The notes under the pieces were generated by a model. That model did not search any database and was not told the DNA's origin. It saw nothing but the letters and a program-made list of their open reading frames with translations. From positions 4,429 through 68,428 of the forward strand of contig JBGSLV010000036.1 in assembly GCA_041740515.1 (NCBI GenBank): a stretch of 64,000 bases of DNA, read 5' to 3'. The DNA is from Bdellovibrionales bacterium. GTDB taxonomy: Bacteria; Bdellovibrionota; Bdellovibrionia; Bdellovibrionales; UBA1609. The position numbers and the translations under genes were made by a program. This document shows positions 25,214 through 64,000 of the stretch, one piece after another. The first letter of the stretch is position 1. Each line of letters begins with the position of its first letter.

Positions 25214-25216
25214 TTT

Positions 25217-40193: not shown

Positions 40194-40233
40194 TTCTTTC
40201 TTGACAGCTTAAAGCTGGGCTAAGCACACTTAA

Positions 40234-41097: not shown

Positions 41098-41121
41098 GTT
41101 TTGTAAATATCAAAACTAAAC

Positions 41122-41796
41122 TCAAAGTCTAAAATGAAACCCACAAACAACACCAAACTCTTCCAATGTGGCTGGTGTGTCAGAAACGTCAATGAATGAA
41201 GAGGATGTGAAAATTTCCGGTCGAAGTATCAATTGTGGTGTAATCTGATAATCAAAACCAATATGTATACCAAAGTATATTTGGGAAGAAGTAACATCAG
41301 CAACCACATCGGTTTCACGCTCTGTTTTAGCCATAGCAATTCCAGATCCTAAACCAATAAAAGGCGCCCATGTCTGCATCGTTACAGAAGAACCTAATTT
41401 GCTATTTGGAATAACGGGAGGTGGATTATAAAAGTATCTTCGTAAAGTAAAACCTGTAAAACTAACACCTGAAGTAAATGGTCCAAGTCTAAACCCACGA
41501 CGATGCCCTAATGCTAATGAATACTTGGGGGCAATGAAAGTTTCAATACTGAGCCCAAACATTCCTGGTGTCTCTGCTCTGGATAAATCAAAACTTTCAC
41601 CAGCAACTATTACCGTTTTATCGATCCCAGAACCACCATATCCAAACAAGCCACCATAAATAAAATCAGGTTTAAATCTCATGGCCTGAGCTGAATTCAT
41701 AAACCCAACGCTTGCTACAATAATTAAAAAAGATTGAAACCAGAAATTAAGCGGCAACAGATAACCCCTTAGCACTATCTTCCTTTTTAATAGCAT
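41122..41796 (-). CDS. putative small outer-membrane beta-barrel protein
   Basis: Signal-like N-terminus, Gly/aromatic-rich alternating strands. Overlaps the upstream gene (the start may be an internal Met). Confidence 0.4.
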   Translation of the reverse strand: MLLKRKIVLRGYLLPLNFWFQSFLIIVASVGFMNSAQAMRFKPDFIYGGLFGYGGSGIDKTVIVAGESFDLSRAETPGMFGLSIETFIAPKYSLALGHRRGFRLGPFTSGVSFTGFTLRRYFYNPPPVIPNSKLGSSVTMQTWAPFIGLGSGIAMAKTERETDVVADVTSSQIYFGIHIGFDYQITPQLILRPEIFTSSSFIDVSDTPATLEEFGVVCGFHFRL

Positions 41797-43513
41797 CTTC
41801 TAAAGTTAAGACATTACTAAAAACCAGATTCACAAGCTTATTATGCAAAGATAAAATTAAACGCTCTTTTTCATTTTCAGGTAAGTTATCAGCTCGAGAT
41901 AAATCGTCTTCCAATATCTGTTTAGCTCTTGGTGAGATAAGCTCTAACACACTGGGAATCATATTAGGTACAACCCTTAAATAGGCTATTAACTCTTCAT
42001 TGGTCGCTCGCTTAATTAAGATCTCTTGCGTTGTTACTGTCCATTTAGAAAAAAAGCCAATGTGTGGACTTCTGCATTTGTACTCTTCAACCATAGGACC
42101 TTTAATTTTAGGCAACAACTTGCAAGCTTCTGTATACGACATACTGTCTACAAGTTTATTAAGTGTCATAGCTAATGAAATTTCAGACTCGCTGATTTGT
42201 TCCGTGAAATAGGGAGCAATTTGATTTTCAATGTCTTTTAACTTCTGTTGACTGATAGAGCTAAGCTGAGCGGCATTGTTTAAAAGCTCAATTTTTTTAT
42301 CAGGATCAAGTTTAGAAAAATAGTTTTTTCGTAAATTTTCAGGCATGTATAGAGAAACAACTGTTTGGATATCCGTATCGTTCCCTAATAGAACTTGGTT
42401 AACAGTCCCCAGATTCGTGTTACCTAAAAATGAAAACGGCTTGTGCAAAGCGTCTGTGCCTAAATTCAAGGAGGCCACCAAATCCCAATAAACTTTATTT
42501 ACTATATCATAACGTTTATCTAAACTTAAAGCTGACATTTGCGAAAACACATCCCCCATCTTCTTTTTTTCTTCTTTAGGGATAGGCAAACTACCAAGCA
42601 CACTTCCTGAAATTTCAGCAAAACAAGCAATTTGACTTAAACCTATTTCTCCTTGCTCACACCACTGATTGATCAATTGATCCAATTGGGTAATTAACTT
42701 CGGAGCAAGTTCTTTTATTTGTAAAGACAGTTGTGCAATTTTAGTCTCCATGGCTAATTTTTCAGCCACTTGCATTTGATCGTCGGCACCACGGCCCGAC
42801 ATAAAGCCTTCGCCGGCTTTCATTTCTGATTTGCTTTCAATATTAACAGAAGGGGTTTGTGACTCCCCTTTTGCGGCTCCACCACTTAAAATACGCCACA
42901 ATATAATTCCTAGTAATATTGCTAGTGCTAAGATGAGCTGACCTACAAGACCTTGTACTTGAATAATGCGATCAAAAGTTGATGGATTAGAGTTTTCATT
43001 TTGAATAAATTGTACTTGCGACTTTCCTAAACCTTGAAACTCTTCTTGAACTCGGTTTTGCAGCCAAGTCTCGATGGATTTTTTTACGGTATCACCCATG
43101 CTTTGGTGTAATCCAACATTTACACTCACTGACTTAATGGCATACTTTGCTAAAGGGCTGACGCTGCCAGCATCAACGTTGGCATAACGATCAAATAAAG
43201 TGTCTGCATCTAAGTAACCTAAATCTAAATCCGTATAATTTTCATCTTGTCCATTGAAATTTCTTTTCTTTTGGGAATCATCAATAATTTCTAATTCAAA
43301 TCGTGCTCCAACATTAAATTTTTCAAAAGTTATAATTGCAGATAACTCTTGAGTATACCTTTTCACGATCATCTCTTCTAAAGCCGCTTTGACACTGATA
43401 ACGTCCGCACGTCGTAATGGCGAAATAGTTTCTGATGTGTTTTTAGTATTTTGCGCCCAAACACAACTAAAACTAAAATATATTAAAGCTATTAAAAATA
43501 TCTTCAAATTCAT
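41747..43513 (-). CDS. bitopic membrane protein (signal peptide, ~200-aa periplasmic domain, 1 TM, ~370-aa cytoplasmic helical domain)
   Basis: Signal MNLKIFLIALIYFSFSCVWA. TM 'LVGQLILALAILLGIILWRIL'. 4-nt overlap with the upstream PEGA/TPR lipoprotein gene. Confidence 0.55.
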   Translation of the reverse strand: MNLKIFLIALIYFSFSCVWAQNTKNTSETISPLRRADVISVKAALEEMIVKRYTQELSAIITFEKFNVGARFELEIIDDSQKKRNFNGQDENYTDLDLGYLDADTLFDRYANVDAGSVSPLAKYAIKSVSVNVGLHQSMGDTVKKSIETWLQNRVQEEFQGLGKSQVQFIQNENSNPSTFDRIIQVQGLVGQLILALAILLGIILWRILSGGAAKGESQTPSVNIESKSEMKAGEGFMSGRGADDQMQVAEKLAMETKIAQLSLQIKELAPKLITQLDQLINQWCEQGEIGLSQIACFAEISGSVLGSLPIPKEEKKKMGDVFSQMSALSLDKRYDIVNKVYWDLVASLNLGTDALHKPFSFLGNTNLGTVNQVLLGNDTDIQTVVSLYMPENLRKNYFSKLDPDKKIELLNNAAQLSSISQQKLKDIENQIAPYFTEQISESEISLAMTLNKLVDSMSYTEACKLLPKIKGPMVEEYKCRSPHIGFFSKWTVTTQEILIKRATNEELIAYLRVVPNMIPSVLELISPRAKQILEDDLSRADNLPENEKERLILSLHNKLVNLVFSNVLTLEDAIKKEDSAKGLSVAA

Positions 43514-44232
43514 GGCGATGCCTTTTTTGCACCTGGGTTTGGACTTAGAGAATTTTCTAAAGTGGCTTTTATTTCGTTGGATGACGGTGTTTGAGCTGGC
43601 AGTCGATTAGGTATTCGAAGTGTGTCTCGGACTTTACCAGCCATATCGATAGCTGTTTTAAGCTCAGGGTTTACAGCTAAAGCATTTTCGTACCATTTTA
43701 AACTCTCTTCAAACTCCCCTTTGGCATAATGAATGGCCGCTTTCATACTTAATGCGCGGTCAAACTTGGGAAACACTTCAAGGATTTTGTCTATTTCAAT
43801 TAAGGCTCTTTCTAATTGAGCTGATTTGGCAAACTGTTGTGATAAAAAAAGCTTTTGTAACAAATCTTGGGCTGTCTTGAGTTCATCGGAGCTACTTGTG
43901 GTAGGATCTAACTTTAAAACTAGCTGTGTTCCCAACTGACCACCGGCATTGATAGGAACCCAAATGTCTTTAGCTTTAAAACCGTCTTTACGAATAATTA
44001 TATTTACTAACCCACCTGGATAATTCTGGCCTTTTAAGTGCTCGCTTAAGTCTTTATCAGTTTTAAGCAGTGGGGTTTGCCCCAAATTTTTCTCTTCTTT
44101 AGTTTCAGGATTCACAATATAAACATCTGCAACTTCAGGCTCTGTGATCACTTTAAACGGAACCGTTCCACAACTTGTAAGAAATTGTATTGCAGCCAAC
44201 ACCATAGAAACTTTAAAAACCAACTTACCCAT
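43510..44232 (-). CDS. lipoprotein with PEGA-like N-domain and C-terminal TPR repeats
   Basis: Lipobox 'FLTSC'. 'ADVYIVNPE...LGQTPL...VNIIIRKDGFKAKD' is PEGA-like. C-terminal 'ALSMKAAIHYAKGEFEESLKWYENALAVNP' is TPR. Confidence 0.55.
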   Translation of the reverse strand: MGKLVFKVSMVLAAIQFLTSCGTVPFKVITEPEVADVYIVNPETKEEKNLGQTPLLKTDKDLSEHLKGQNYPGGLVNIIIRKDGFKAKDIWVPINAGGQLGTQLVLKLDPTTSSSDELKTAQDLLQKLFLSQQFAKSAQLERALIEIDKILEVFPKFDRALSMKAAIHYAKGEFEESLKWYENALAVNPELKTAIDMAGKVRDTLRIPNRLPAQTPSSNEIKATLENSLSPNPGAKKASP

Positions 44233-44462
44233 AATGATCCTTCCATGCTATTTATCGAGAAAACAGTAGGTACTCTTGATGTAGTATCAGGGTTTCTAAA
44301 CTATAGACTTGTTTTATTTTTTAAGATTTTCTTAAGATTTCAGATTCTTAAATATGCATTTTTTGTATTGAAAAAATTAAGCCTTAAATTGAAACAAATA
44401 AGACTTAAGTCGTGCAAAAACAATACTTCGTTAAATTTAATATGGCCGATAATTGCATTGAT

Positions 44463-47400
44463 TTAGGGTCCTGATTCCACTAGTATCTGCGAACTTCGAA
44501 TAGTTATTTGACCTTGTGATGGTGAAACTCGTGATACAAATTTTTCATTTATTGGAAGACCCACAATCTCTGGACTTCGATAGTTATTTAAAGTCGCAGG
44601 GTTGATAAAAATTTGTGATCCCGTCACTAAATTTAATCCTAGATTGCCAGAACTTGCACTATGATACATTAAATCCACTGACCCTTGCGATAAACTGTCG
44701 GTATCGGCTGTCACTTGATAATATACTTTAGGATTAGTAAATTGGCTTCGATCAAAAATAGCGCGTTGATAAGTAAGTATGGTTTCAACTCCAATCATGC
44801 GATTTAAAGATCCAATTCTATAAACTAAACTTGTTTTTGATAAATTTCTAAGTTTTACCCAAAGCCCCGCTTTGTGAATTCGGACGGAACCAGTTGAGCA
44901 GTAATATTCACATCGTAAAACTAATCTGTAATTGTGCCCTTCATTGACCCCACGAAATTGTAAAACACCTTCGTTAAATGGAATACTAGTTATTATTACA
45001 CCAGGTCCTGAAAATCGTGTTTCGGTCATAGCTACTAATTGGCTTGTGTTGTTATTGTAAAGCCCTAATATTCCTTCGGCTCCATTTACTGTTGAAATTA
45101 ATGTCTCAAGTTCCCAAGCGTTATACTCAATGATTTTATCTAAACTTAAAGCTCTTCTGGTAAATAGACTAGCTTGGGGGAAATCATGATAGACAGTGTC
45201 TGATGTGCTATAAGCAAAAACATCAGCGTCAACATTGATTGGGGATTCATCAGAGCTTAGCAAAGGATAATAGATTTTTGTCTTAGTAGCATTGACTTGA
45301 TTAACAAGTAATTTCGCCGAGTACACCGACAGCTGCCCATCTGAAGTCGTCTGTTCAAGCTCTAGTCGAAGTTTCTGTGCCCCCGAATTTATAGTTATAG
45401 GGGATTTAAAAACAGTAGGTTCAAAAGTATTTGCTGGAATTGTTATAAAATCCATCATCACATCTGACTCATTAACAATACCTACAGATCTAGCCGTTGT
45501 ATCAAAATTAGTTCCTATAACTTCAAACTCTAACCCTGTAACACCATCGTAGTCGTTAGTGTCAAAAGTTGTTAAAGTTCTATTGAAAGCTATGTTGTTA
45601 GAGCCACTAGATGCAATCGCTAAGTCTGTTAACTCAATAGGAACTTGAAAGCGTAAAGATCCATCTCTAATGATACTGACAGTGTTGGAACTCACCGATC
45701 TGCGACCATTTGCATACACTCCTCTTACGGCATAATAATAAGTCACAGCTGCGACCACATTACTGTCTAATGCTGAAGTTGTTACAGAAGTTTGTACCAC
45801 GCCGTAAGGACCTGAAGAGGATTCGGATCTTAAAACTTCATACTGTGTCACGGATGGGATAACATCCCAATTTAATTCAACAGCTGAGGTACCGTTTACG
45901 GCTGTTAAATTTGTCGGACCACTCACTAACAGGACCGAAACTTGATTGGAATTGTTAGAAATAACGCCTGAACTATTTACCGTTCGAAGTACATAAAAAT
46001 AACTATCCCCAGGAATTACCGTGGTGTCCAAGTACTCTGTGGTAGCTGGAGGTAACGTAGCTATGACACTGTAAGGTCCCCCTGAATTTACGGATCGAAG
46101 CAGTTCATAACTTGCGATGCTAGGAACATTCGGCCAATATAGCTCTACAGAATTTGTTGACTGCGAAGCTAAATTTAATCCAACCGGAGTTTGAGGTCGT
46201 ATTGATACATTCACAGGGTCACTGATCAGCGAGGTTGCCATTTCACTGCCGTTGATCGCTATAGCTTGATACTGATAATAATAGGTCTGAGCTGGTGCAA
46301 TTGAAGCGTCGACATAAGAGGTCGTTGGTAACCCTGAAGCAATGAGTTCAAAATTAACAGCGTTTGTTGAACGATATAAATTATAGGTATTTGCATTTAC
46401 GACACTTGCCCAAGATATTCCAATTGAAGTGGTAGTGTTAAATTGCACATCTGGCTTAGGCGTGCTCATTTCAGACTGGATCATGACTTCATTAGAAGGT
46501 GCACTTTCATTAAAGCCATTCAAAGCTGTAACTCTAAAATAATACGTAGTTCCTGCTACTAAACCACTGACAATAGTCCCTGAAGAGCTTGTAGTGTTCT
46601 GGATCGGGGCCCCGTAAACTCCGGAAGTTGTTGATCGATAAATATTAAAAGAAGTTCGCCCAGAGACATCCGTCCAAGTTAAATTCACATCATTTCCAGA
46701 TCCAGTGTTTTCAGCATGCAATTGCACTGGAGACAGTGGTATACGCCCAGGACTAAAACCAACGCTAATTGGCGAAAGCAATTGCAGTGGAGGATAGTTT
46801 GTCTTAATCCGATAAAAATATACGTTGCCATTGCTTGCAGTATTATCAGTGAAGTTTGTCATTGCATAGTTTGTGCTAATGGCACTAAAGGTTGATCCAT
46901 CCGTTGATCTTTCAATATCATAATCAATAGCCCCTGCCATTGGTGTCCATGACAAAGTCACTTGATTATTACCCGTTATTCCACTGGGGGCTGAAGCTGG
47001 CATAAATGTCCATGCTTGAGCTACTGGTGAAGTTTGAGGAACACCGGCAACAATGGCCACCACTCTGATGTAATATAAACTTTGAGGATTTAAGCCAAAT
47101 ATGGTTGCCGTATTCGTTGCTGTTGTGGTTGCTATTGTATATGGACCTGCAATGTTTAAGGCCCGTTCCACACGATAAGAAGTTGTGGCTGGAACACTTG
47201 GCCAATCTACACGCATGAACGTATCACCAAGAACCGTTAAGCTGATATTAGAGGGAAGGGTGGAAGTAGTTATTTGACCTAACACAACTTGAGATGATTG
47301 ACCCTCGGTTAAATCCGAAAAGCGCGCACGTACTCGGTAATAATAACCCGTGTTCACGTTGACTGCAGTGTCTTGATAAGTTGCCGTAGAGGCAACATCG

Positions 47401-50400
47401 TAATTGACAAATGGACCATCAAAAGAATTGGCTCTGGCTATGACATAGTCTTGCGCGCCAGCTACAGCATTCCAAGATAGTTGCAAACGATCCGATTGAG
47501 GAGCCATTGCAAAACCAGTTATAGGTGCATTTCTAAATCCAACAGTATTTGTAGGAGCTGTCTCATGACTTCCCCAAACCGCTGTGATTCGAAAAAAATT
47601 CATACCAGTTAATAAAGGTGCGGAACTCATAAATGTAGTGTTAATATTTTGGACAAAAGTAAATGGTCCAAGTTCATTGGCGGATCGGTACAATCTGAAA
47701 TTATTAAAATGTGAAGGTGATATCCAATCCAGCTGAACTCTATTATCTGCAGCAATGAAATTTAAAATCAAATTTCCCGGCGCAGATGGATTAACGTTTG
47801 CTCTTGCCGCTTTGATAGCAGTTGGATAACCGACGTAAATTTTATCGCCATCGATATCAAAAAGATAAGCTTGAACATAATAATAAGCCCCATCCATATT
47901 GGCTGTAGGATCAACCAAAGAACGTGGTGTATAGCCATCCACTAAAACTGAAAAATTTTTGTCAGGGTCTGAAGATTTATATACAGTGTAGAATAAATCC
48001 CCGGAATTGTAGGACCCAAAAGTGCTTGGTGCCGTCCAAGAAAGAATCACTTCGCCATCTCCAGGAGCAAGATTTAATTGTGGCGAATCCGAAGAGTAAA
48101 AACCGACAATATTTGAGCCCCCACTTTCAGAAAGTCCCCATCCTGCTCTGACACGAATGTAATTGATGTTATCATTGCCAAAACCACAATCATCAAATGA
48201 AGCTAAATCAGTAGAACCCATAAGCCCTAAAGAATTTTTTGGAAAGCCTTTATAAACATTAAATGTGTCATAGTAAGAAGATCTGGACCAATTTATTTTT
48301 AAACCCTGACCACCACCGCAACTAGCAATGGCATTAAGTGGAGTGATTGACAATAAGGTCGGAGCACTTGGATTAGCTTTTGGGACAGCTGAAGCTATAT
48401 TAGACTGGGAACTTTCACCGGCAGGATTACTGGCTTTGATTAAATAAAAATAAGTTTGTCCGTTCGACAAACCTGTATCTGCATAAAAAGTTGAAGTCGT
48501 TGTAACTCCTAGATCTGTAAATGGTCCGGCAAATTGTAAAGATCGAAAAATTCGATAAGTGACATTTTCAGGAAATCCACTCCAAGTCAAATTCACTCTT
48601 GAATCACCAACAGTAGTGACCAAATTATTAGAAGCAATTGGTGTTGGAGCTGCAATTGTGATACTAACTTCGGGGGAACTTTGGCTTCGCCCCGTAACAT
48701 TGGATGCAAACACGCGGTAATAATACGTCTCGCCATCAGTAATTTGTAAATCGTTATAGTTATTTCCAATCTGTTGACTGCTTAATACTGTATAAGGGCC
48801 ACCCGACTGGTTTGATCTTTCCACTGTGTATCTAGGAGTGGGATTTGCAAGTCCATCAGGAAGCCAAGACAAATTGACCGAACCATTTACATTGTTACTA
48901 GCCACCAAATTCGCTGGCGGTAAATTGTTATGTGTAAAATTGGTTAAAAATCGGCATGCAGATAAAGTTCCGACTTCATTTATTGTTTGGCCATACAAAG
49001 CCATTGTTGCATTCGGGTTTACTTGTATTGGCACACCAGTGGTTGTCAACAGAGTGGGATTTGCGGAAGTGACTAAACTTGTGCAGATGGAATTAGCATA
49101 AATACTTAAGTTAACTCGATTCATAAAATCTGGACTTAATGTGTAAGACCCAAACAGTCTAATCTCTTGGTTATAAGACGGAGAAGTAGGTGTAGTGCTT
49201 TGAAAGACAGGTGCGGCAGGTACAAGAATATTGTAAGTGTAAAAAGTTAAAAGCGTACAATTACTTTCATTACCTGCCGCATCGAAGGCTTTAGCATAGA
49301 TGGAAGTTTCAGCGTTGATATTCACATCAATCGTTATTCCTGTTGCATTAAATTGATTTGGTGTACCCTCACCCAGTTTTGTTACACAGGAGTCACTGTC
49401 AAAGAATTCAACTCTTGAAGGTGGCAACTGACTGGCTGGATTATCTAACACATCCCCTGAAATAGTCGGTGTCGAGGATTGATTGTTTGGTGAAATGGGA
49501 GCAATCCCGCTGTATGTTGGATTTACTGGAGACACATTATTATGAATATAAGTCGTTAAAAAAACACAAGCTGAAAAGTTACCGTAAATATCAACAGCGC
49601 GAGCAAAAAGCTGAGTGGTCGAATTTAAAGGCAAATTAGCAACAACTCCCGATGCTGTATATTGCCCTCTGGAAGCTGATGCAATCTGTGTGGTACAGGT
49701 TGGGTTGGTAAAAATCCGTATCGTTTCAATTGTAGGATCAGCTGTTCCTAAGATAGCAGGAGTACTAGAAAATCTTGAAGGCGAAGCAGGTACTGTGAAA
49801 GCAAATGTAGGATTCGGCGCAGGCACACTTGAATGTTCATAACTGGCATGGAAGGTACAATCGGACATATTACCTTCAAGATCAGAAACGCGGACGTAGA
49901 TGGGAGTGGTCGAATTGGTATCTAAGTTTAGCAAAATACCATTCACTTCATAATCATCGATATCCCCTTGACCCACACTGACAGTGCATAATTCATCTTT
50001 ATAGAAAAACAAATTTACTGTTCGAGCTGCCGCTTGCCCGATGATCAAAGGAGTTGTTGTTAAATTCGTAGGCGAAAGCGGATCTGTTCTATTAAACACT
50101 GGGTTTTCAGGAGGTGTAGTATTATGAATATAACTTGTTAAAAATGTGCAGTCCGAGCCATTATCAGAGCTATCAAAAGCTCGTGCGTAAATATTGGTTG
50201 TGTCATTGCTGCGTACATTTGTAACGGCACCAATTCCAATAAAATCAGGACGATTTCCAAAACCGATAGTGTTTAAACACAAAGCCGAATCATAAAAAAT
50301 AATCTCATCTGTATCGCTACTTGCCGAACCAAAAATTCTTGGCAAAGTCTTTTGGTTTGTGGGCGACATGGGACTTGCCCCTAAATATCCAAGAGCAGCT

Positions 50401-51350: not shown

Positions 51351-51392
51351 CCAAACACGTTCCAGAATAACTTCCTTAATAGTAAATTTTTT

Positions 51393-54300: not shown

Positions 54301-54671
54301 CAAATAAAACTCACTGGGGCTGAAATGTTTCCCATATCATTTTGAGTTAGAAAATAATTATAAACGCCATCGGTCGTTTGGCTTAGCGCAAAAGAAAATT
54401 CAGAGTTGGAGCATATCGTTGAGGCGATCGAGGCTCCAGAGAGAGAAATTAAACTCCCCGATTTACAAAGTCCTTGAATTGATAAAGTACTTCCTTGCGA
54501 GTAATAAGGGTTTTGTGCAGGAATACTTAAAACAGGTACTTCTATATCGGGACCATTGTTAGAGCTTTGAACATTAAGATTTTGTTTACAAGATATAAAA
54601 TTAATAACAGCAAAAAATGCTGTTATTAATTTTATAATTTTAAAACTAAAGTCAACGTTCCCTATATTCAT
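51393..54671 (-). CDS. FG-GAP/VCBS-repeat (integrin-alpha-like beta-propeller) lipoprotein with N-terminal Ig-like domains
   Basis: >=13 copies of 'GDFNNDGF.D..V'-type FG-GAP motifs. Lipobox-like 'FISCKQ'. Confidence 0.8.
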   Translation of the reverse strand: MNIGNVDFSFKIIKLITAFFAVINFISCKQNLNVQSSNNGPDIEVPVLSIPAQNPYYSQGSTLSIQGLCKSGSLISLSGASIASTICSNSEFSFALSQTTDGVYNYFLTQNDMGNISAPVSFIWYRKTSVSQPSLTYPPSNPHSSSEAVLNIQGGCETGALVSLANDGTGSTTCSNSTFSISLPKFADGNYNIEIRQTDLAGNQASLNLVWQKQSLSVIPNDPQIVVGQSEVFNITGGTAPYTVVLTQNNSLTANYNSSTSTYTAGSRAGVTDVLTVTDNQGFSQQINIQVLADVADHFEFPTLSGNNQSAFIGQSFSEPISIRVVDRFGNGVSNYPVLFQRTAGDVHIIGPSERRTNASGTATVSVLQGYNAARSYVSVLPLIGTLPDVVASGLSKARFLLSSQSRNSGAFDLNYNVGSGAENTLVGDFNNDGFNDIFVLNKSEATISRFLGRGNGLFTTQSKLTGLCSGPSGMAFADFNNDTNKDLILVCNGTGQFSFLAGVGNGSFSAAVNTLQDPLETLPVDVAIGDFNNDGDKDIVIVNGASNNIAIRFGNNNGTFDSPTIYPSGSLPTKVAVGDLNNDGFEDLAVINASDDTMSVYINNGSGGFSSQVIYSTGVAPSSVTMARLNGDLFQDIIVTNSGSDNISVFLNLNDGTFDIPDITSVGLTPIALSAKDLNADGFIDLAIANVGDSTLSIFYGLNTGTFDIRPSINTLSNPINIMASDFNQDMLQDLLIVSNGETKIQILPGQTDGILGFLTSVSDTPVKVISHDLDNDGFLDKAVVNRAANSITLHKGLGNGLFSSLGFLNVGNSPTDADFVDLNNDGLVDLVIVLNAASSVRVFMGQGGGVFASGGSYPVHSQPTSIVHGDFNNDGLMDVAVTCSGANRMNFLPGQGDGSFGPRTTSVSGAQPSHITAGDFNEDFVLDVAVVNQSDDSVTVFLSNGNGTFQTADFDVESGPNGIIAGFFDSDGFLDLAVSNNISSSVSILKGRGDGTFNPANHFSAGIEPTSLAKGDLNGNGREDIIVGNGMQRNLTILFGSPTGNYATISSINTGVNASHIAVDDLNNDQILDITILDDSEALIKVFLGQ

Positions 54672-54729
54672 ATTTTAAATTGCAAATTCCTATTTCATAG
54701 TAAAAAGTTAAACCCTCAACAGTTAAAAT

Positions 54730-57700: not shown

Positions 57701-60591
57701 GCCACCACCGGAGCCACTGTTCCTACACCGTCTAAAGTTTCTAGAACAAATGGTCCTCGACACTGGCTAGTTAAAGAACTTACTGGCAACACAGGAGGTG
57801 TTATACGAAACGCAGATGGGCTGATCGTTAATGTTCGAGTACTAGACTGGGTCATTCCCAAGGCCACATTCGAAATAAAAATATTTAAAATCTCAGCCTG
57901 GTTACCACGGAAATATACGGGTGTTGATCCCGATCCATTCGGCATAGTGATTGTCGTATTAGACCCACCACCTGTGCATGACGAAGATGTGTAAAATCGG
58001 CCAGTGGTTGATACTCCCTGTACACCGTTGATGGTTAGATTTAAATTTTGATGTGCAGGAACAACATTATTTAAAGTGTCTCGAAGACTTACCGTAAATG
58101 CAGTTGAACATTGACCTGCGACAACGCTTGATGGTCCTGTATAATTAATTCTTGAAGCTAAAACTTTAATCTCTTGCGGCAAGGACACCGTAGTAATTAA
58201 ACCATTTGGATCAGCGGCGTTAACCATTAAATTTTCACCCACAGGATCTCTTAAATAAACAAAAGTATTTGAATTTGGCGCGGCCCCTAAACTCATTGGA
58301 AAACTTGTAGCCGTAATCGCCGTTGTACAAGTATCATCAGAAAAAAGCGTGGCACTTGACCCTAATATACCAGACATAGCTATATTAATTGTTCCAAAAA
58401 CTTGTCCTTGGGTGTCGTCCTCTGCAAGGGGTGAAATCACAATTCGAGTTGAACATTGTCCAGATAGAACCGTCAGCAATGTTCCTGGGGCTGCAGGAAT
58501 AGCAGCTTCAGCCAATAAACGAATTTTACTTGGTGTGATATTCAAAGCGTAGTTTGCCGCTGTTAAAACAGATGAAGAGTCAGAGACTGCAATATTTAAA
58601 GCCAATGATTTATTATTTTTTAAATAAAGAATTTTAGTGTTTTGTCCTGTACTGAATAGAACATTGGTACTTAGTGGTGCGCCCCCACATGTGTTGCTAG
58701 AGTAAAAACTTGAAGTCCCATGACCAGAGATTTGCACGGTTGTATTACCAGTGGCGTTGGCTAAATTGCCTCCTAAATCGCGAAGCTGTATTAAGATCTG
58801 ATCACTACACTGTCCCGATCGAACTTCACTAGGACCTGATACTGTAATGACTCTTGGTATGCCGGCTGTAATGTTAAAGTTATTACTTGTTGCTGGAGTT
58901 AAAACTCCAGAATTGGCGACCAAACGATAGTTGGTACCTGTTCTATCAATACCTAAATCATTAAACTGAGCAATCCCATTAACAGCGACCACAGGATTTG
59001 TTCCGGTAAGTATTGCACCATTAACGTTATTCGAAATTGTTAAAGCAATTGATGACGAAGCTTGTGCACCTGTGGTGATAAGATTGCCCTGGGCATCTTG
59101 AACTGCAAGTTGAATTGGGTTCATACTTGCCAGACCTGCAGGGGAAGTTTGTGGCTGTGCTAAAAAAGCCAATCGAGCAGGAGGCCCCGCTTTGAACGGA
59201 GCTAAAACTTGTATGGCATTAAGACCCGAGGGTGAAGTGATACTTAAAACTCTTGCCGGTGTTGTATCTGCAATTGAAGTTGAAATAGAACCAGTTGTGA
59301 CTCCCGTTGCATCGGTGTTTAACGAGGGCTGTGTTATCGAATCACCCACAATGTTCGAAGAAAATTGCGGTCTAATTCCTGAAACGGGGTTTCCAAAAGA
59401 ATCACGAAGCGTAAAAATCACTTGATAGGAATCCGAGCCATTGGCAATCAAAGCTTCAAACGGAGGAATAATGGCTGGATTAATTGTTAGTGTACTTAAA
59501 GTCGGCGAAACGTTTCCTGGTGTTATATTAAATTGGCTAGAGTCAACAACCATCTCTGGACTACCAAAAGGTAAACCTGAGGTATCAGCTTTACGTGCCG
59601 ATATTATTTTTAATCCCGACTCTTCAAAATTAATTCCAGTGAATGTGGCAACTCCCGCCACAGCATTGATGGCAAATGTTCCACCAACACTTCCGCTGGA
59701 GGGGGATGTCGGTGCGATCTCTAAAGTGATAAGAGCCGTGGCATCAGGTCCCCCTGAAACAATATTACCATTTTCATCTAAAACTCGTACTACAGGCTGT
59801 TGAGTTAATATTTGTCCCGCTTGAGCATTTCCAGGTTGGGTTGCAAAAACTAAAGATTCAGCTCGACCCAAAGCTGTAAAGGTCACAATTTGATTATTAT
59901 TATCTTCAATACCATCAACGGAAACAGCAACACGGCAATTATAAACTGTGTTTGTAACTAAGCTTGTGATTGGCACGCTTGTCAAAGTGATATCTGTAAG
60001 TGTGCTAACTAAACTGAATTCAGTTGCTGCAGCGGTTTTACAATAGACGCTAACTGCTGTGGCTTCACCGGATGTAGCAGGACTAAAATTTAAAATAGCT
60101 TCAGTGCTACTTACTACAAGTGCATTGGTTGCACCCCCATAAGCAATACCTGGAAGATCATTTTCATTTATGTCTTCCATATCTCGATCATCAACAGCTT
60201 TGACTCGAAATTGGTAAACTCTATTTCTATTTAAGCCTGAAATAATGGTTGAAGACACGTTGCCAACTTCTCGTTTAATTTCTGGGAAGGAAGGTAAAGT
60301 TGTATCGTAGATGCGATAACCTGTTACTCTTGTGCTTGAAGATTGAGTCCAAGTGATTCGGACCGAAGAGTCTGATAAAGTTTGGACTGTGGCAGCTCCG
60401 GTAAAGCCACCAAATGTTGTATCCCCATCAATGATAGCTTGAGTTAATGACTCTTCAGAAGGCATACATGAAACTACGGCATGAAGAGATAAGACTAATA
60501 TTAATCTTAAGAAATTTTTTAAGTGAAACAATCTATTAAGATTTGCTGCTTTATAATTATAAACTTGTAAAATGGCTTTTACATGTTTCAT
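54730..60591 (-). CDS. giant lipoprotein: N-terminal FN3/Ig-like (BIG) domains and a C-terminal ~900-aa NHL-like beta-propeller with a repeated 'G-C-x(8-12)-PGWC-x-GG' loop
   Basis: Met at 60591 is preceded by a GGGAGAG RBS and begins a lipoprotein signal (...LHAVVSC). 8 repeats each with 'GW[IL]G', 'GC...', 'PGWC[VRFLQ]GG' and 'LY[VI].D...R[VI]..Y'. The ORF track extends to 60696. Confidence 0.8.
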   Translation of the reverse strand: MKHVKAILQVYNYKAANLNRLFHLKNFLRLILVLSLHAVVSCMPSEESLTQAIIDGDTTFGGFTGAATVQTLSDSSVRITWTQSSSTRVTGYRIYDTTLPSFPEIKREVGNVSSTIISGLNRNRVYQFRVKAVDDRDMEDINENDLPGIAYGGATNALVVSSTEAILNFSPATSGEATAVSVYCKTAAATEFSLVSTLTDITLTSVPITSLVTNTVYNCRVAVSVDGIEDNNNQIVTFTALGRAESLVFATQPGNAQAGQILTQQPVVRVLDENGNIVSGGPDATALITLEIAPTSPSSGSVGGTFAINAVAGVATFTGINFEESGLKIISARKADTSGLPFGSPEMVVDSSQFNITPGNVSPTLSTLTINPAIIPPFEALIANGSDSYQVIFTLRDSFGNPVSGIRPQFSSNIVGDSITQPSLNTDATGVTTGSISTSIADTTPARVLSITSPSGLNAIQVLAPFKAGPPARLAFLAQPQTSPAGLASMNPIQLAVQDAQGNLITTGAQASSSIALTISNNVNGAILTGTNPVVAVNGIAQFNDLGIDRTGTNYRLVANSGVLTPATSNNFNITAGIPRVITVSGPSEVRSGQCSDQILIQLRDLGGNLANATGNTTVQISGHGTSSFYSSNTCGGAPLSTNVLFSTGQNTKILYLKNNKSLALNIAVSDSSSVLTAANYALNITPSKIRLLAEAAIPAAPGTLLTVLSGQCSTRIVISPLAEDDTQGQVFGTINIAMSGILGSSATLFSDDTCTTAITATSFPMSLGAAPNSNTFVYLRDPVGENLMVNAADPNGLITTVSLPQEIKVLASRINYTGPSSVVAGQCSTAFTVSLRDTLNNVVPAHQNLNLTINGVQGVSTTGRFYTSSSCTGGGSNTTITMPNGSGSTPVYFRGNQAEILNIFISNVALGMTQSSTRTLTISPSAFRITPPVLPVSSLTSQCRGPFVLETLDGVGTVAPVVATTQANLSGAGISGAFYSDNNCTAIITSTTFISGQSSRQFYFKGQFPETSLTLTATHSAGVLTAATQAWAVLGDLGWVGTASTQTDSNGNLLPFRMGVKPVAARYDGIRGANHIAFSPNKQFLFVADHDANRVIKYDYQSLEYRGWIGRMRRENGIGPSGSAQSIPSSALCVGTGNDQPLPGWCVGGLSINGTESTGGFSNPWGITADDTYIYVSSSNTNSVSRHRIDTGEFEGWIGLIGTTAPSGSATGGPGSCNTSTSTVSPGWCRGGSLDTGNSRIGDGRMINPNGVKVDSVFMYVGVSGAVLRYNKATGAFQGWLGIVNVTPTGGAVGCTSTPQGQRTPGWCFGGEFLYSNAQSQSGVQGGVREARDMVISGTNLYVLNSGDGGVINRYNIDTGAFIQRLANLSFNWNNPIAMDFDGSFFYVADDERILKVGATGLIESWMGKVANPSGMSGNAGCNSLASNQNTPGWCLGGTYKPGLDETSFLDNWGLALDGSGSFVTISRRFPMLKKFSVSTGNYQGSIGLESISPRSWSSDRQARVEFHGFDDYSTYNPMGSLIVGDFLFMAEVDGSRVKKFNKRTGELIGWIGAMTSTATGGQNPASCLAANAMGPSPSWCLGASNYPSFTWGDQNLIASNVNGIMQRPHGLTTDGTWLYVTDFSLHRIQRFNLDTGAYGGWIGRIGNSVANIPTGGDPGCTAAGVNSFTPGWCLGGLSREGNGDGQMYQPTAIVFHGGNLYVVDTRNHRVSSYNAATGNFNGWIGRVGSAPNPGCTTASNGNYVVSVAGWCLGGSASLASYRNDRGGGFNFDWGNYDRGGIATDGSHLYITNTRNIRIDKYTFGGVLVESTSTRQDMYVNTWQSAAANIANIGNGLDCSMPVSVWVDSNFIYGMNANTCGSGNGAAIWKMDKTTGTIVGWKGGIQASFPTSGGDPGCAGSSDLTPGWCQGGRVSSGSTLGKFNDSLGMMFGDDHFLYVTDKNGNRMTRFPK

Positions 60592-60933
60592 CTTTACTCT
60601 CCCGCTTACGTACAAATTCTTTAACAAAATTGAACAGATATTTATCGTCATGTTATATAAAGTCCTGCAGATTCTAAGAGGACATAAGTGTTTCAATTTA
60701 AGAATAGACTAAATTTTAAGACCAAAGTTCAGAAAACAAATCTTAAGATTAGGTTAAAGGATAAATCTTCATCACTCATCCAACGTAGTGGATTTAAGTG
60801 TATCAAAATAAGAATTTATTATGTTCTGATTTTTAAGATCTTAAGATTTCATGCAGAACACATTTTGAAAATGCACAAAAATATCCTTTTGAGACACTAA
60901 GATTTGTAAACATTAAGACACTATAGATTGGCT

Positions 60934-62079
60934 TTAAAAACTTAAAGCTACATAGGCATTGAACTGGTCTGTGTTTATTTTTTCAAGGGTATCGGTAAAT
61001 CTGTGGCTTGAGTATGAAAACCCATACTGTACTCTTCGAAGATTGTTTAAATTTTGGGTTAAATCCAAACTTAATTTTAAGGATCTTTCGCTAATAGGCT
61101 CCGAAAAATCATATGGTCTATAACTAATTTCAGCTCCGTAACTGATATCACTGTCACGATAGAATTCGGTTCGTAAACCCAAATCAAAGCCATATAAACC
61201 CGAAAATCCAAAAGGTGCACCTAAGGAAAAAAGGTTTATCGTGCCGCCGCCCAAAGTAATACGACTTCGATATTTAGGATTACGCACCAATGGGATTAAG
61301 TAACTTAAACCTACCCTGCCCTCAAAAAACTGTGGGTTTTCCTCCACTGGGGATGACGTATAGGTGAACAGTGTCAATAAAGCATCTGCAAAGTATCCCA
61401 ATTTATACCCTTTTTCAGGAGATGTGTACTTGGCTCCAACGAGTAAAGCTTGGGATACAAAAGTTCCAAATGAACTTTGACGATAGATCAAATACGAATG
61501 CCCAATGGAAAAAAATACCGAGTCAAAAACATTGGCCATTTTATACTCCCTAGCTTCAGGAGCAAAAAGATACAAGGTTTCACCAACTCGTTCATTCTTT
61601 GGTCCAACCGCTGTCAGATATAGCGTGCTAATTCTAGATCTAAGATAAGCGTAAACGACGTATTCACCTTCGACATCTGACTTCCGAACAGGTTCCTTAT
61701 CACTCAAAAAGATTTTCCATCCGGGTTTATTATACTTAAGTTTAAGCTTTACCATGGGTCTAAAGTTTTCACCCTGAGGCACCAAATAAACTGGAACTTT
61801 ATCAGTTTCTAATATTAAATCTTCAATACTACTGCTGCTTGTTTTATCTCTTAGAATGTGGGCTATCCAAAGCGCTTGTTTGGATTTATAAACTTCTCTA
61901 TCTTCAGGGGTGATCTGTTTGGAATTATTTGGTGTTATAGGCTTAGCAGCATCTATGGCTGGAACAGCATCTGGTTTAGACACTCCCTCAGCCAAGACGT
62001 TTTGTAAATGGAGCATCAGTGCAAATAGCAGCAAAATTTTCATACTTTTAAGGTTCTCAAATACTAAGACTTCTGACAA
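60934..62079 (-). CDS. secreted protein with C-terminal outer-membrane beta-barrel-like domain
   Basis: Signal MKILLLFALMLHLQNVLA. C-terminal half has alternating aromatic/Gly strands ending in ...YVALSF (terminal Phe). Confidence 0.5.
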   Translation of the reverse strand: MSEVLVFENLKSMKILLLFALMLHLQNVLAEGVSKPDAVPAIDAAKPITPNNSKQITPEDREVYKSKQALWIAHILRDKTSSSSIEDLILETDKVPVYLVPQGENFRPMVKLKLKYNKPGWKIFLSDKEPVRKSDVEGEYVVYAYLRSRISTLYLTAVGPKNERVGETLYLFAPEAREYKMANVFDSVFFSIGHSYLIYRQSSFGTFVSQALLVGAKYTSPEKGYKLGYFADALLTLFTYTSSPVEENPQFFEGRVGLSYLIPLVRNPKYRSRITLGGGTINLFSLGAPFGFSGLYGFDLGLRTEFYRDSDISYGAEISYRPYDFSEPISERSLKLSLDLTQNLNNLRRVQYGFSYSSHRFTDTLEKINTDQFNAYVALSF

Positions 62080-62146
62080 TGAATATCAGCGAGATGAATA
62101 AGTAATTAACCGAAATAGTCTAAAATAGTTTTGACAGGTGTATATA

Positions 62147-63496
62147 TCATTCCCCAAAAGGTGCAATAAGATGAGGAGCTTGGTAGATGCTTGTGGGACT
62201 GTTGCCTCTAAAAACTAAGCGATCTTGATCATCCCGAACACCTCTAAGTTCAACTCTAATATTACTGGTGCAAGTTATTTGGTTTGATTCAAGCAAAAAA
62301 CAAATTGATGATTCGCCAAACATTACTTTTTTAAAATTCTTTGGGGCATTGCTTACTTTGGTAAATGAACTTGCGATAGGATCTTTTTTACTTTCATATT
62401 TTAAACCCGATGGTAAAATACCTCGACAGTACAACTCCTTATCTAAGGTGACTCCACACATGGCATCAATTAAATGACTCACTTCCACAAATTTATACCC
62501 CTCAGAGATCTCTTTGCCTTGTTTAATGCTAAAGCCTAAATCGGAATAGCTTATGCCATATTTCCTTCGAGTAACCCTAAGATTAGATACATCTTCACTA
62601 AATAGATATAGTTTATTGTTAGTCGCATTTAGTACAATATTATCAGCCATTTGGAAAATATTATGCACTTCTTGATTAAAGACAAACTCATACATTGCTA
62701 AAGTTAAATCTATTGGTATTAAATATTCATTTAAATCACTCGATCTACTTCGACGTTGCCAATTATAAATTTTTCCGTCTAAACCAACAGCAAAAACGCA
62801 AGATGTGGAAAGAAAGAACTCTTTAATTTTTATGTCCGTCATCTTTAGAAAACTATAATTGTCATAGGGTGTACTTATAATTTCATTTAAATCACTTCCA
62901 CCACAAAAAAGTTCATGCTCTGAGTTCAAATAACAAATTAGACTTTCATATATTTTAAGATCTAGAAGGTCTTCGCCAAAGTTGTAAGAAATATTGCTTG
63001 TAAGTATTGATGGCAACATTCTATCAGGATCTATAAATGTCCAATTGTTATTCATATCTTCAACAGCAAGCGCTTGATATCCCATTTCTAATCTTTTAAC
63101 TCCATCAGGAATATGCAACTGCCGAAGGCCAATAAAATTTAAATAGTTATTTCCAAAGCAGTAAACATCTTTGACCAAGGCATAACAATAACTTCTACCG
63201 TAGTTGGCTGTTAACAAAACTTCATCTAGTTTTTTGACTTCCATTTTATCTTCAGAAAGTAAGTTTTGGATAATTTTGACCGCACCAGCTTGTAGATCTG
63301 TTGGCAGCTGCTGCACTAAAATCGATCGAGAGGGCACCTTTTTATCTATTCGAAGTAAGATTTGCTCACACAATTGCTGAGCATATCTTTTTTTGGTCAG
63401 TTTAATATTCATAATTTTTGCTAAAGAAGAAGAAGAAGAATTTGAAACTTCGTCCATAGATACGGCCTCTGGATTCCCATAAATCATTTCACTCAT
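62147..63496 (-). CDS. hypothetical protein, possibly RCC1-like beta-propeller
   Basis: Repeats resembling RCC1 blades ('YALVKDVYCFG', 'CVFAVGLDGKIYNW', 'CGVTLDKELYCRG'). The assignment is tentative. Confidence 0.45.
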   Translation of the reverse strand: MSEMIYGNPEAVSMDEVSNSSSSSLAKIMNIKLTKKRYAQQLCEQILLRIDKKVPSRSILVQQLPTDLQAGAVKIIQNLLSEDKMEVKKLDEVLLTANYGRSYCYALVKDVYCFGNNYLNFIGLRQLHIPDGVKRLEMGYQALAVEDMNNNWTFIDPDRMLPSILTSNISYNFGEDLLDLKIYESLICYLNSEHELFCGGSDLNEIISTPYDNYSFLKMTDIKIKEFFLSTSCVFAVGLDGKIYNWQRRSRSSDLNEYLIPIDLTLAMYEFVFNQEVHNIFQMADNIVLNATNNKLYLFSEDVSNLRVTRRKYGISYSDLGFSIKQGKEISEGYKFVEVSHLIDAMCGVTLDKELYCRGILPSGLKYESKKDPIASSFTKVSNAPKNFKKVMFGESSICFLLESNQITCTSNIRVELRGVRDDQDRLVFRGNSPTSIYQAPHLIAPFGE

Positions 63497-63601
63497 AGAG
63501 GCTAAAAAAGGTATAAAATTCTCTACAGTTTTTTGAGCATTTACAGGCTCTATACATGCAGCTTTGACCGCACTAAGGTCCTTGGTTTTAAAACCTAATA
63601 A

Positions 63602-64000
63602 TTAAATACTAAGCTTGTCCCCAGGTTTAGCTTTTAAGATCACTTCACGGGTCATGGTTAATTTAGCTCTCATGAGACCAATTCCATCAAAGGATAAATC
63701 TCTTTGCAGCAATTCTAGACCCGTCGCTTTAGTAGGTAAATAACCATTAACTTTTATTTCAATTCCATCCAAAGTAAGATCAATCTTTTGATGACTGCTT
63801 AAAGAAATATGAACAACTTTGATAAAGTCAGGTTTAAATTTACGAACCTTGGTTGTAAGTGTCAGTGCCACATGACCCACTTGGATCTGTTCAGAATGAG
63901 TCGTGATATCCTTCGAATTAAGCTCCCAAGATTTAGGTTCATCCGCTTTTGAATGAGCCGTAACAGCCGCTACATAATTGGTAAAGAGCTCGTTCAGTTC
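63602..64000 (-). CDS. hypothetical protein, 5'-truncated by the window edge
   Basis: The reading frame is open from the window edge (…ELNELFTNYVAAVTAHSKADEPKSWELNSKDITTHSEQIQVGHVALTL…KPGDKLSI*). It contains a 'DLSFDG' (DxSxxG, PilZ-like) motif, but this is not a firm call. Confidence 0.4.
   Translation of the reverse strand, partial: ELNELFTNYVAAVTAHSKADEPKSWELNSKDITTHSEQIQVGHVALTLTTKVRKFKPDFIKVVHISLSSHQKIDLTLDGIEIKVNGYLPTKATGLELLQRDLSFDGIGLMRAKLTMTREVILKAKPGDKLSI

Follow-up and report, generated by a model that had tools for sequence, protein, structure and literature searches.

A FliF-FliG-like protein linked to giant lipoproteins in a conserved gene cluster suggests a non-flagellar, ion-driven envelope machine in Bdellovibrio-like bacteria

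A 588-aa bitopic protein encoded in a Bdellovibrionales bacterium appears, from sequence profiles and structural modelling, to be a naturally occurring FliF-FliG fusion, joining two rotor proteins of the flagellum. Its gene lies next to those for three giant lipoproteins within the 64-kb window (the whole stretch of DNA analysed here, 64,000 nucleotides), and by sequence comparison seven genes of the locus make up the distal part of a system of about 12 genes that is conserved in uncultured Bdellovibrio-like bacteria. The make-up of the cluster points to an envelope machine of a new kind, powered by ions. Given the observed homologies, domain order and gene linkage, we think it reasonably probable that the locus encodes a non-flagellar trans-envelope machine, derived from the flagellar motor, that is driven by ions and acts on the giant lipoproteins.

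Positions 41122-63496 are occupied in the ORF list of the window by eight co-directional minus-strand genes, listed here by rising coordinate together with the domains of the bitopic protein:

41122-41796, minus strand: small OMP-like protein, 224 aa (longest ORF); signal peptide ending SAQA; last gene of the cluster
41747-43513, minus strand: FliF(RBM3)-TM-FliG-like protein, 588 aa, from family profile, AF2/Foldseek and Pfam
41789-42781, minus strand: its cytoplasmic FliG-like region, residues about 245-575, from HMM alignment to T. maritima FliG MC
42884-42979, minus strand: its single transmembrane helix, residues 179-210; a helix in both AF2 models and a hydrophobic segment conserved in the alignment
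43007-43420, minus strand: its periplasmic RBM3-like domain, residues 32-169; fold order alpha-beta-(47-aa insert)-beta-alpha-beta
43510-44232, minus strand: TPR lipoprotein with a PEGA-like N-terminal domain, 240 aa; lipobox LTSC; Pfam TPR_2, E 2e-6
44463-51350, minus strand: FN3-rich giant lipoprotein, 2295 aa; lipobox QVSC; Pfam fn3, E 1e-22
51393-54671, minus strand: FG-GAP/VCBS propeller lipoprotein, 1092 aa; lipobox FISC; Pfam FG-GAP_3, E 5e-82, 12 stretches
54730-60591, minus strand: NHL-type giant lipoprotein, 1953 aa from ATG; lipobox VVSC; Pfam fn3, NHL (E 4e-10), Big_1 and SGL
60934-62079, minus strand: p381 family secreted protein, 381 aa; signal peptide; C-terminus ...YVALSF
62147-63496, minus strand: 449-aa protein with Cys-containing repeats and no signal peptide; adjacent and co-directional

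An earlier, sequence-only reading of this DNA had described a minus-strand run with three giants back to back, a 4-nt overlap and gaps of 42 and 58 bp, and the ORF coordinates confirm all of this: the overlap lies at 43510/43513, between the stop of the TPR gene and the start of the FliF-FliG-like gene, and the two gaps separate the giant genes. The same reading held that gaps are short or overlapping throughout, which is true of most junctions but not of the 230 nt between the FN3 giant and TPR genes or the 342 nt between the 381-aa and NHL genes (237 nt with a TTG start for NHL). The NHL ORF extends to that TTG at 60696 (54730-60696, 1988 aa), and its start is likely the ATG at 60591, as called in an independent Logan assembly. 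At the distal end, the 224-aa ORF overlaps the 588-aa ORF by 50 nt; several small outer-membrane proteins had been placed downstream, and a single small OMP-like gene was found there. A promoter and terminator scan of the locus gave no signal above chance.

The 588-aa protein consists of a cleavable signal peptide, a periplasmic RBM3-like domain, one transmembrane helix and a cytoplasmic FliG N-M-C-like region, an order that parallels the RBM3-TM2-[FliF C-terminus:FliG_N] arrangement of the flagellar motor. The presence of a bitopic protein with a large cytoplasmic domain, suited to coupling, is thereby confirmed, while the accompanying statement that no component of the locus maps to a named system was wrong for this protein, a FliF(RBM3)-TM-FliG homologue. 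It has the ring-building RBM3 domain and following transmembrane helix of FliF, and the N, middle and C-terminal armadillo-like domains of FliG. When the family profile was compared with the PDB, FliG chains were the only matches (best 1lkv, FliG MC, E 7.3e-9), and a Foldseek search of the PDB with the AF2 model (pLDDT 74.6) recovered full-length FliG at E 1e-5 to 2e-4 over 305-329 columns. Among 38 family members, Pfam detected FliG_M in 16, FliG_C in 15 (all of these below the gathering score) and MgtE_N in one.

Residues important in flagellar torque generation can be located in this alignment. A torque-helix-like segment, SPRAKQILEDDL, lies within the FliG-like region at residues 526-538 (nt 41900-41938). 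Conservation throughout the family, across 157 full-length members, extends to the acidic pair D536/D537, which corresponds to E. coli FliG D288/D289, and to F487, at the second Phe position of the MFxF hinge; W491 is also conserved in the family. R529, the equivalent of E. coli FliG R281, is kept in the window's clade only and is replaced by M, L, F or K in other members. The 47-aa insert of the RBM3-like domain bears a conserved motif of its own, DLDLGYLDAD. Other parts of FliF and FliG are absent from the 588-aa protein: it has no TM1, RBM1 or RBM2, with only about 150 periplasmic residues forming a single RBM-like unit after the cleavable signal peptide, and no EHPQR FliM-binding motif, the corresponding position in the HMM alignment being LLGNDTDIQ. 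The family comprises at least 160 clusters at E<=1e-30, all metagenomic "hypothetical proteins"; every member is a metagenome or MAG sequence, and all those with a taxon label are Bdellovibrionales or Pseudobdellovibrionaceae. Engineered FliF-FliG fusions are on record (8z4d; PMC6079021, PMC10941966), and no natural one was found in the literature searched.

The two immediate neighbours of this gene are its most constant companions. Clustering placed a TPR orthologue immediately upstream in 16 of 17 loci, the exception being L022, whose ORF at that position fell outside the cluster, and a small OMP orthologue directly downstream in all 17. The upstream protein had been called a PEGA+TPR lipoprotein; the TPR match and the lipobox stand, and PEGA is supported weakly, through a match in the L026 orthologue (E 0.0024). 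The 224-aa protein found no match in the PDB, and Pfam OMP_b-brl appeared weakly in two of 12 orthologues (best E 3e-4), which together with the signal peptide and aromatic C-terminus makes it a candidate outer-membrane beta-barrel.

The NHL-like, FG-GAP, FN3 and TPR domains previously recognised all have Pfam matches, at the E values listed above. Similarly, the lipoprotein-type signal claimed for each giant is present, with a Cys lipobox, in all three giants and in the TPR protein, and is conserved among their orthologues. The FN3 giant has N-terminal Cys-containing repeats of ~97 aa, an FN3 array and a C-terminal domain of ~450 aa, and its orthologues (2295-2399 aa) are linked to the triplet of TPR lipoprotein, FliF-FliG-like protein and small OMP in 12 of 17 loci, in varied orientation. 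The FG-GAP protein has N-terminal Ig-like domains (Pfam Big_1 and Big_13) and orthologues in 10 of the 17 loci, as well as in L037 and L038. In the NHL giant, FN3 domains and a Big_1/invasin-like Ig array accompany a propeller region at the C-terminus in which a 'PGWCxGG' repeat occurs eight times; orthologues were found in L008, L033, L037 and L038. The p381 protein has no Pfam or PDB match; from its signal peptide and aromatic C-terminus, the C-terminal half may be an outer-membrane beta-barrel, and its orthologues adjoin the LysM lipoprotein and/or the NHL giant in L008, L025, L026, L030, L032, L033, L037 and L038.

The triplet is present in every one of about 20 related loci. Its repeated companions there are the three giants (FN3, FG-GAP and NHL), p381, a lipoprotein with LysM, a membrane protein with a GYF domain, a coiled-coil protein of 850-1200 aa and MotA/MotB of the flagellar type. 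In close relatives the complete cluster reads MotA, MotB, GYF-domain membrane protein, coiled-coil protein, LysM lipoprotein, p381, NHL giant, FG-GAP giant, FN3 giant, TPR/PEGA-like lipoprotein, FliF-FliG-like protein and small OMP. None of the MotAB, GYF, coiled-coil or LysM genes lies within the window, where the 449-aa gene sits in their position. The 449-aa protein had been counted among the upstream components of the apparatus; it has no homologue in any related locus examined, and because it is not conserved it is probably outside the system.

This pattern bears on the question of whether the three giants are simply independent adhesins beside an unrelated membrane-protein operon, with no common machine. 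The 230- and 342-nt gaps could house separate promoters, and the distant locus L006 has the triplet with no giants within 10 kb. Against this, in at least 12 loci the triplet has linked FN3, FG-GAP and NHL orthologues, whether upstream and co-directional, downstream and convergent (L022) or divergent (L008), and with bitopic proteins as low as 29% in identity, and an identical 12-gene order is found in two diverged relatives. Such co-recurrence in several arrangements argues for a single system, and we regard independent adhesins as very improbable. The sequence-only reading had likewise preferred a dedicated locus to scattered adhesins, and the recurrence of giants, TPR/PEGA-like, bitopic, small OMP and 381-aa proteins supports it; the synteny search proposed at that time for the ordered gene set finds the linkage kept in relatives.

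Evidence for an energy source comes from the relatives. A MotA/MotB pair lies within the cluster in 10 independent loci (L006, L020, L022, L025, L026, L030, L032, L033, L037 and L038), placed co-directionally after the OMP gene, divergently upstream, or at the cluster head, the last in two relatives of the window's own clade. The MotA proteins of L026 and L037 match PomA/MotA best, at E 6e-39 to 8e-29 over four-TM-length alignments, with E values of 1e-26 for MotA, only 3e-8 for TolQ and no match to ExbB. The linked MotB proteins have the transmembrane Asp (motif 'SYADMMTLL'), a MotB_plug and an OmpA domain; with the large cytoplasmic MotA interface, these are the features of a flagellar-type (FIT) stator. 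The arginine equivalent to MotA R90 is conserved in eight of eight loci and in L037, and the equivalent of E98 in none of these stators. The canonical second rotor-stator charge pair is therefore absent, there being no MotA E98 equivalent and the FliG R281 equivalent occurring in the window's clade only. Since all scores fall under every NCBIfam equivalog cut-off, these stators form a divergent branch, and since the window has no MotAB, the stator link for its organism rests on relatives. Within the window, ExbB/ExbD genes occur only as part of a TonB-TBDR cluster, 14 kb from the locus.

Bdellovibrionales are flagellated as a rule. The homology to FliF, FliG and flagellar MotA/MotB might mean that these proteins serve the organism's flagellum, as an alternative rotor, stator dock or sheath-associated ring, with the giants as mere neighbours. 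We consider this quite improbable, because no flagellar gene other than the FliF-FliG-like and MotAB genes was found in the window or across some 20 related loci of ~20 kb each. This holds for fliM/N, flhA/B, fliPQR, and flg and fli genes, and the same sequences showed no surrounding genes for the export apparatus, rod, hook or filament. The lack of RBM1/RBM2 and EHPQR in the 588-aa protein likewise speaks against a flagellar role, as does the survival through rearrangements of its linkage to the giants, p381, LysM and GYF genes.

In the proposed non-flagellar machine, the 588-aa protein would form a ring in the inner membrane, oligomerising by means of its FliF-RBM3-like periplasmic domain. 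Every subunit would bring its own FliG-like domain, producing a hard-wired 1:1 MS-ring/FliG rotor. This ring would not be a secretion or flagellar base, since the system has neither RBM1/2 nor a FliM-binding motif, and no genes for an export gate, rod, hook or filament. Peptidoglycan-anchored stators of the MotA/MotB type, whose genes head the cluster in relatives and would lie outside the window here, could spend ion-motive force on the FliG-like C-terminal domain, with the conserved FliG acidic pair presumably facing the conserved MotA arginine. The TPR/PEGA-like lipoprotein, which is translationally coupled, might relay the output together with the LysM lipoprotein and the two OMP-like proteins to the three giant Ig/FN3/propeller lipoproteins, which could act as adhesin-like effectors in surface movement, attachment or prey contact. 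Ring formation, torque, the coupling path and the localisation of the giants are all parts of this model that we infer, as is the biological role, whether gliding, adhesion or prey contact.

In its most specific form, the proposal is a free-standing FliF-RBM3/FliG ring of flagellar ancestry with dedicated MotAB, split from the type III export apparatus. It would be the rotary engine of a non-flagellar envelope machine with which Bdellovibrio-like bacteria move giant adhesin-like lipoproteins, or put them under tension, in order to glide or to contact prey; we offer this version tentatively, as something short of an even chance. The triplet and linked MotAB could instead be an energy transducer resembling Tol-Pal or TonB, in which the ring is a static or ratcheting scaffold and stator activity exports, surface-exposes, tensions or remodels the giants or the outer membrane. 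In its favour, the system resembles the Tol-Pal type in having lipoproteins, a peptidoglycan binder (LysM) and OMP-like partners, rod and shaft genes are absent from the loci, and one canonical rotor-stator charge pair is missing. However, the retained rotor parts are exactly the ring-forming and torque-receiving ones, and the stator is flagellar-type, with plug and OmpA-like anchor, a type so far tied only to torque on FliG (PMC12505986). A transducer of this kind therefore seems unlikely to us, and the ion-driven, motor-derived machine that acts on the giants remains our preferred reading.

The rotary engine, if real, would put FliG/MotAB to work outside the flagellum for the first time. A conserved cluster that retains only the ring-forming and torque-receiving rotor parts, fused in one protein, alongside its own MotAB and giant lipoproteins would be a new class of bacterial machine. 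To our knowledge, the known non-flagellar 5:2 motors (Tol, Exb, Agl, GldLM and Zor) belong to other branches, and none has a FliG-like partner. Flagellar-type stators and FliG are regarded as exclusive to flagella in the literature searched (e.g. PMC12505986). The system would also be a living example of the flagellar torque module working without the secretion core, and would bear on the long-standing question of whether, as modular-origin scenarios propose, a rotor-stator module can exist and be of use apart from the type III export core. The 588-aa gene and linked motAB offer concrete targets for work on surface motility and prey attachment in a poorly known predatory lineage, and a naturally 1:1 FliF-FliG protein should be useful in structural work.

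Compared with the flagellar motor core, the system shares the S-ring RBM3 fold, one transmembrane segment followed by FliG N-M-C, the torque-helix acidic pair and the Phe at the MFxF position, and in relatives a flagellar-type stator with transmembrane Asp, plug, OmpA-like anchor and the R90-equivalent Arg of MotA. It differs in joining the FliF and FliG parts in one polypeptide, in replacing TM1 by a cleavable signal peptide, and in lacking RBM1/RBM2, EHPQR, FliM/FliN and a MotA E98 equivalent, as well as export-gate, rod, hook, filament and L/P-ring genes. Conversely, this system, unlike the flagellar one, always comes with a TPR lipoprotein and OMP-like proteins, and usually with giant lipoproteins.

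The analogy drawn earlier with myxobacterial Glt/Agl assemblies holds as a likeness of logic only. Like the Agl-Glt systems of Myxococcus and Bdellovibrio, the proposed machine would combine a motor in the inner membrane that runs on ions with TPR lipoproteins, proteins resembling OM beta-barrels and a cargo of adhesins. GltJ is bitopic, with a GYF domain at its cytoplasmic N-terminus, and AglZ is a large cytoplasmic coiled-coil protein, and relatives of the present locus encode proteins of both descriptions. In contrast, the Agl-Glt motor is the TolQR-type AglRQS rather than MotAB, and has no FliF/FliG-like component; no sequence relationship to Glt/Agl emerged from NCBIfam and Pfam scans of all eight proteins, NCBIfam giving nothing beyond a sub-threshold TPR alignment to Tgl (E 0.0085). 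Bacteroidota gliding/T9SS, with its GldLM motor and giant adhesin SprB, similarly couples a 5:2-type motor to very large repetitive Ig/propeller surface proteins. It belongs to a different phylum, and the present system has no GldL/M/K/N homologues; its giants are lipoproteins, with lipoprotein signal peptides and no Pfam or NCBIfam match to a T9SS C-terminal sorting domain. Finally, the alpha-beta-beta-alpha-beta ring-building fold is shared with the RBM-ring proteins of type III secretion (SctJ/PrgK/EscJ) and sporulation (SpoIIIAG/AH/AF), and SctJ has the same topology of signal peptide, periplasmic RBM and C-terminal transmembrane segment.

The 588-aa bitopic protein of the cluster has FliG homology in its cytoplasmic part, a relationship that emerged from the profile and predicted-structure searches that the sequence-only reading had proposed for each protein. 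Its layout is as follows.

41747-43513, minus strand: 588-aa protein with a signal peptide, a periplasmic domain of ~150 residues, a transmembrane (TM) helix (residues 179-210) and a helical cytoplasmic part of ~370 residues
43202-43237, minus strand (residues 93-104 of the same protein): nearly invariant acidic motif DLDLGYLDAD, in an insert of ~47 residues between strands 1 and 2 of the RBM3-like domain (low-confidence model)

Searched against Pfam as a single sequence, the protein gave a sub-threshold match to FliG_M. A profile built from 38 homologues matched FliG chains only in the PDB, the best being the middle and C-terminal domains of T. maritima FliG (E 7.3e-9, residues 362-574), and the AlphaFold model (pLDDT 74.6) aligned with the full-length FliG of cryo-EM C-rings over 305-329 columns (Foldseek E 1e-5 to 2e-4). 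When the 38 members were scanned singly, Pfam detected FliG_M in 16, FliG_C in 15, FliG_N in two and MgtE_N in one. That lone Pfam hit and a Foldseek E of 0.46 were the only indications of MgtE, and an MgtE_N-like identity for the helical domain was rejected because all significant PDB matches were to FliG. At the residue level, an acidic pair (D536/D537) aligns with D288/D289 of E. coli FliG and is conserved in 157 full-length members, and the Phe of the MFxF hinge is kept in the family. An Arg at the position of FliG R281 (R529) is found only in the window's clade, and alignment to FliG showed that the EHPQR FliM-binding motif is absent from the 588-aa protein.

The domain order is RBM3-TM-FliG, which in the flagellar motor corresponds to FliF's C-terminal half followed by FliG; TM1, RBM1 and RBM2 of FliF are missing. 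The fliF and fliG genes are adjacent in flagellar operons, and fusion of these neighbours is therefore a simple origin for the protein. The acidic motif may form a metal site or be the counterpart of FliF's beta-collar insert. We considered whether the protein belongs to a ring associated with a flagellum; no other flagellar genes were found near the cluster, either in the window or in any related locus.

FliF-RBM3/FliG fusion-like proteins form a large family. A word-indexed search returned 49 relatives of the 588-aa protein, and an exhaustive profile search recovered 380 clusters at E<=1e-3 and 160 at E<=1e-30, with nearly all members 580-700 aa long and matching end to end. Every member comes from a metagenome or MAG, the sole name attached is "hypothetical protein", and taxon labels are confined to Bdellovibrionales, Bdellovibrionia, Bdellovibrionaceae and Pseudobdellovibrionaceae.

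The gene encoding this protein lies in a co-directional cluster that the sequence-only reading had described as a surface machine with three giant lipoproteins. The cluster and adjoining features are listed here.

38228-41097, plus strand: metal/arsenic-resistance-like set (MerR regulator, LMWPc phosphatase/ArsC-like protein, SBF/ACR3-like transporter, cation-efflux (CDF) protein), converging on the cluster end at 41122 across a 24-nt gap
41122-63496, minus strand: eight ORFs of 224, 588, 240, 2295, 1092, 1988, 381 and 449 aa
54730-58200, minus strand: C-terminal half of the NHL giant, with eight PGWCxGG repeats in the propeller region, ~80-150 residues apart and each preceded by GW[IL]G
62147-64000, minus strand: 449-aa protein (Cys-containing repeats, without a signal peptide) and a partial ORF at the window edge

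The spacings reported earlier were exact (4 nt shared at 43510/43513, and 42 and 58 nt separating the giants). Two other gaps are longer: 230 nt precede the TPR gene and 342 nt the NHL gene. The latter figure assumes an NHL start at the ATG at 60591, which gives 1953 aa, as called in an independent assembly. A scan of positions 41000-60999 for consensus promoters and terminators gave counts no higher than in shuffled sequences. The domain assignments for the giants were borne out by Pfam (FG-GAP_3, E 5e-82; fn3, 1e-22; NHL, Big_1 and fn3 in the 1988-aa protein). The lipoprotein-type signals were confirmed as well, with a lipobox Cys in all three giants and the TPR protein that is kept in orthologues. 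For the 240-aa protein, said to combine PEGA and TPR, Pfam supported TPR, and PEGA was seen weakly, in an orthologue. The 32 Cys of the NHL giant suggest that its blades are stabilised by disulfides, as is typical of an oxidising compartment.

The giants, TPR and bitopic genes recur together across related loci, in which the sequence-only reading had proposed a synteny search. About 20 related loci were gathered and their ORFs clustered into families, with the triplet counted over 17 loci. The genes for the FliF-FliG-like protein and the small OMP-like protein were present in 17/17 and that for the TPR lipoprotein in 16/17 (the ORF at that place in L022 did not cluster). Linkage was seen in 12 loci for the FN3 giant, in 10 for the FG-GAP protein, and for the NHL giant in the window and in L008, L033, L037 and L038, wherever the flank is long enough. 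A reading in which the giants are unrelated adhesins that happen to be neighbours was considered. The giants lie upstream and co-directional in most loci, downstream and convergent in L022 and divergent in L008, and the retention of linkage through such rearrangement argues for a functional connection beyond inheritance alone.

Five more families recur: p381 (the 381-aa secreted protein), a LysM lipoprotein, a bitopic protein that combines a cytoplasmic GYF domain at its N-terminus with a periplasmic part of ~300 aa, a cytoplasmic coiled-coil protein 850-1200 aa long, and a MotA/MotB pair found in 10 loci in three different placements. Profiles of p381 and the small OMP gave no meaningful match in the PDB or Pfam. 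The fullest view comes from L037 and L038, loci of the window's own clade found via p381 homologues. L037 shares a 986-kb contig with L002 (bitopic protein 69% identical) and comprises 12 co-directional genes over ~31 kb in the order MotA-MotB-GYF-coiled coil-LysM-p381-NHL-FG-GAP-FN3, then TPR-FliF/FliG-like-OMP; L038 has the same order, but with MotAB divergent at the head. A profile search with the GYF protein gave six matches, none from the window's clade. GYF domains bind proline-rich peptides, and coiled-coil proteins adjoining the GYF gene end in proline-rich stretches (...PVPPLPPGKVEP in L037, 5264-8863; ...IPPPPPMHF in L033, 13814-16324), so the two proteins may interact; the coiled-coil protein of L026 is without this terminal motif. 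The cluster evidently tolerates insertions, since in L009 (a Bdellovibrionaceae MAG) two inserted genes, one for an HNH endonuclease and one of 327 aa, separate the FN3 giant from the TPR gene (5961-9021). In L002 the ENA/NCBI assembly breaks the TPR lipoprotein gene into two ORFs (9290-10004), probably through an assembly frameshift, because a Logan assembly of the same organism has it whole (L003, 9291-10004).

The linked MotA proteins matched PomA (E 6e-39) and MotA (8e-29) structures. In NCBIfam, the models for flagellar MotA/PomA matched at 1e-40 to 1e-46 and TolQ at no better than 3e-8 to 5e-5; all scores lie under the equivalog cut-offs, so the proteins form a divergent flagellar-type branch. 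A non-rotary, Tol-like transducer was considered as a rival reading. The linked MotB has a TM aspartate (in SYADMMTLL), a plug and an OmpA-like domain, exactly the features by which a recent survey tells flagellar stators from motors of the Tol/Exb/Agl type (PMC12505986). The Arg at the MotA R90/PomA R88 position is conserved in all linked MotA proteins examined, and the Glu at the MotA E98/PomA E96 position is not conserved in them. The idea that loss of the FliG R281 equivalent tracks loss of the MotA E98 equivalent was rejected: the window's clade keeps R529, yet the L037 MotA is without the Glu.

The window itself holds seven of the 12 cluster genes. MotAB, GYF, coiled-coil and LysM genes were not detectable anywhere in its 64 kb, and these five would be located past its end or at another place in the genome. 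Upstream of p381, where relatives carry them, are the 449-aa gene and the edge ORF, neither with a counterpart in related clusters, a pattern suggestive of insertion or rearrangement in this genome. The Logan contig extends no further than 718 nt upstream of the 449-aa gene. Two other loci of the window lie outside the cluster.

10924-16545, minus strand: fourth giant, 1873 aa, with Big_6/Big_13 Ig-like repeats and a glucodextranase-B-like domain
18875-27374, minus strand: complete TonB-type uptake cluster, in the order DUF3450 protein, long ExbB (455 aa), short ExbB (151 aa), ExbD, TonB, TPR protein and receptor (1197 aa, TonB-dependent, N-terminal CarboxypepD_reg domain)

The ExbB/ExbD proteins (24.3-26.6 kb) were rejected as the system's motor, being inside a complete TonB-TBDR cluster and without linkage to the triplet in relatives.

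The fusion-like protein belongs to a conserved cluster in which it is accompanied by a flagellar-type stator, three giant lipoproteins and partners of cytoplasmic, periplasmic and OM type. We propose that the 588-aa protein would form an inner-membrane ring with FliG built in, on which the stators would act, powered by ion-motive force; the giant Ig/FN3/propeller lipoproteins would receive the work by way of the OMP-like proteins and two kinds of smaller lipoprotein, TPR/PEGA-like and LysM. Gliding, adhesion and prey contact are candidate biological roles. Full-text literature searches yielded engineered FliF-FliG fusions, no natural one, and no non-flagellar system built on FliG plus MotAB. 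For these reasons, and because the family is unannotated, we rate the system as categorically new, on a basis that is computational throughout and with a mechanism that we infer. Pfam and NCBIfam scans of the eight proteins at 41122-63496 found no sequence relationship to the Agl-Glt or GldLM/SprB gliding machines. The overall logic resembles that of those machines, and the parallel with Agl-Glt extends to individual parts: GltJ is a GYF-domain bitopic protein and AglZ a long coiled-coil protein, resembling the GYF bitopic protein and the long coiled-coil protein of the relatives, respectively.
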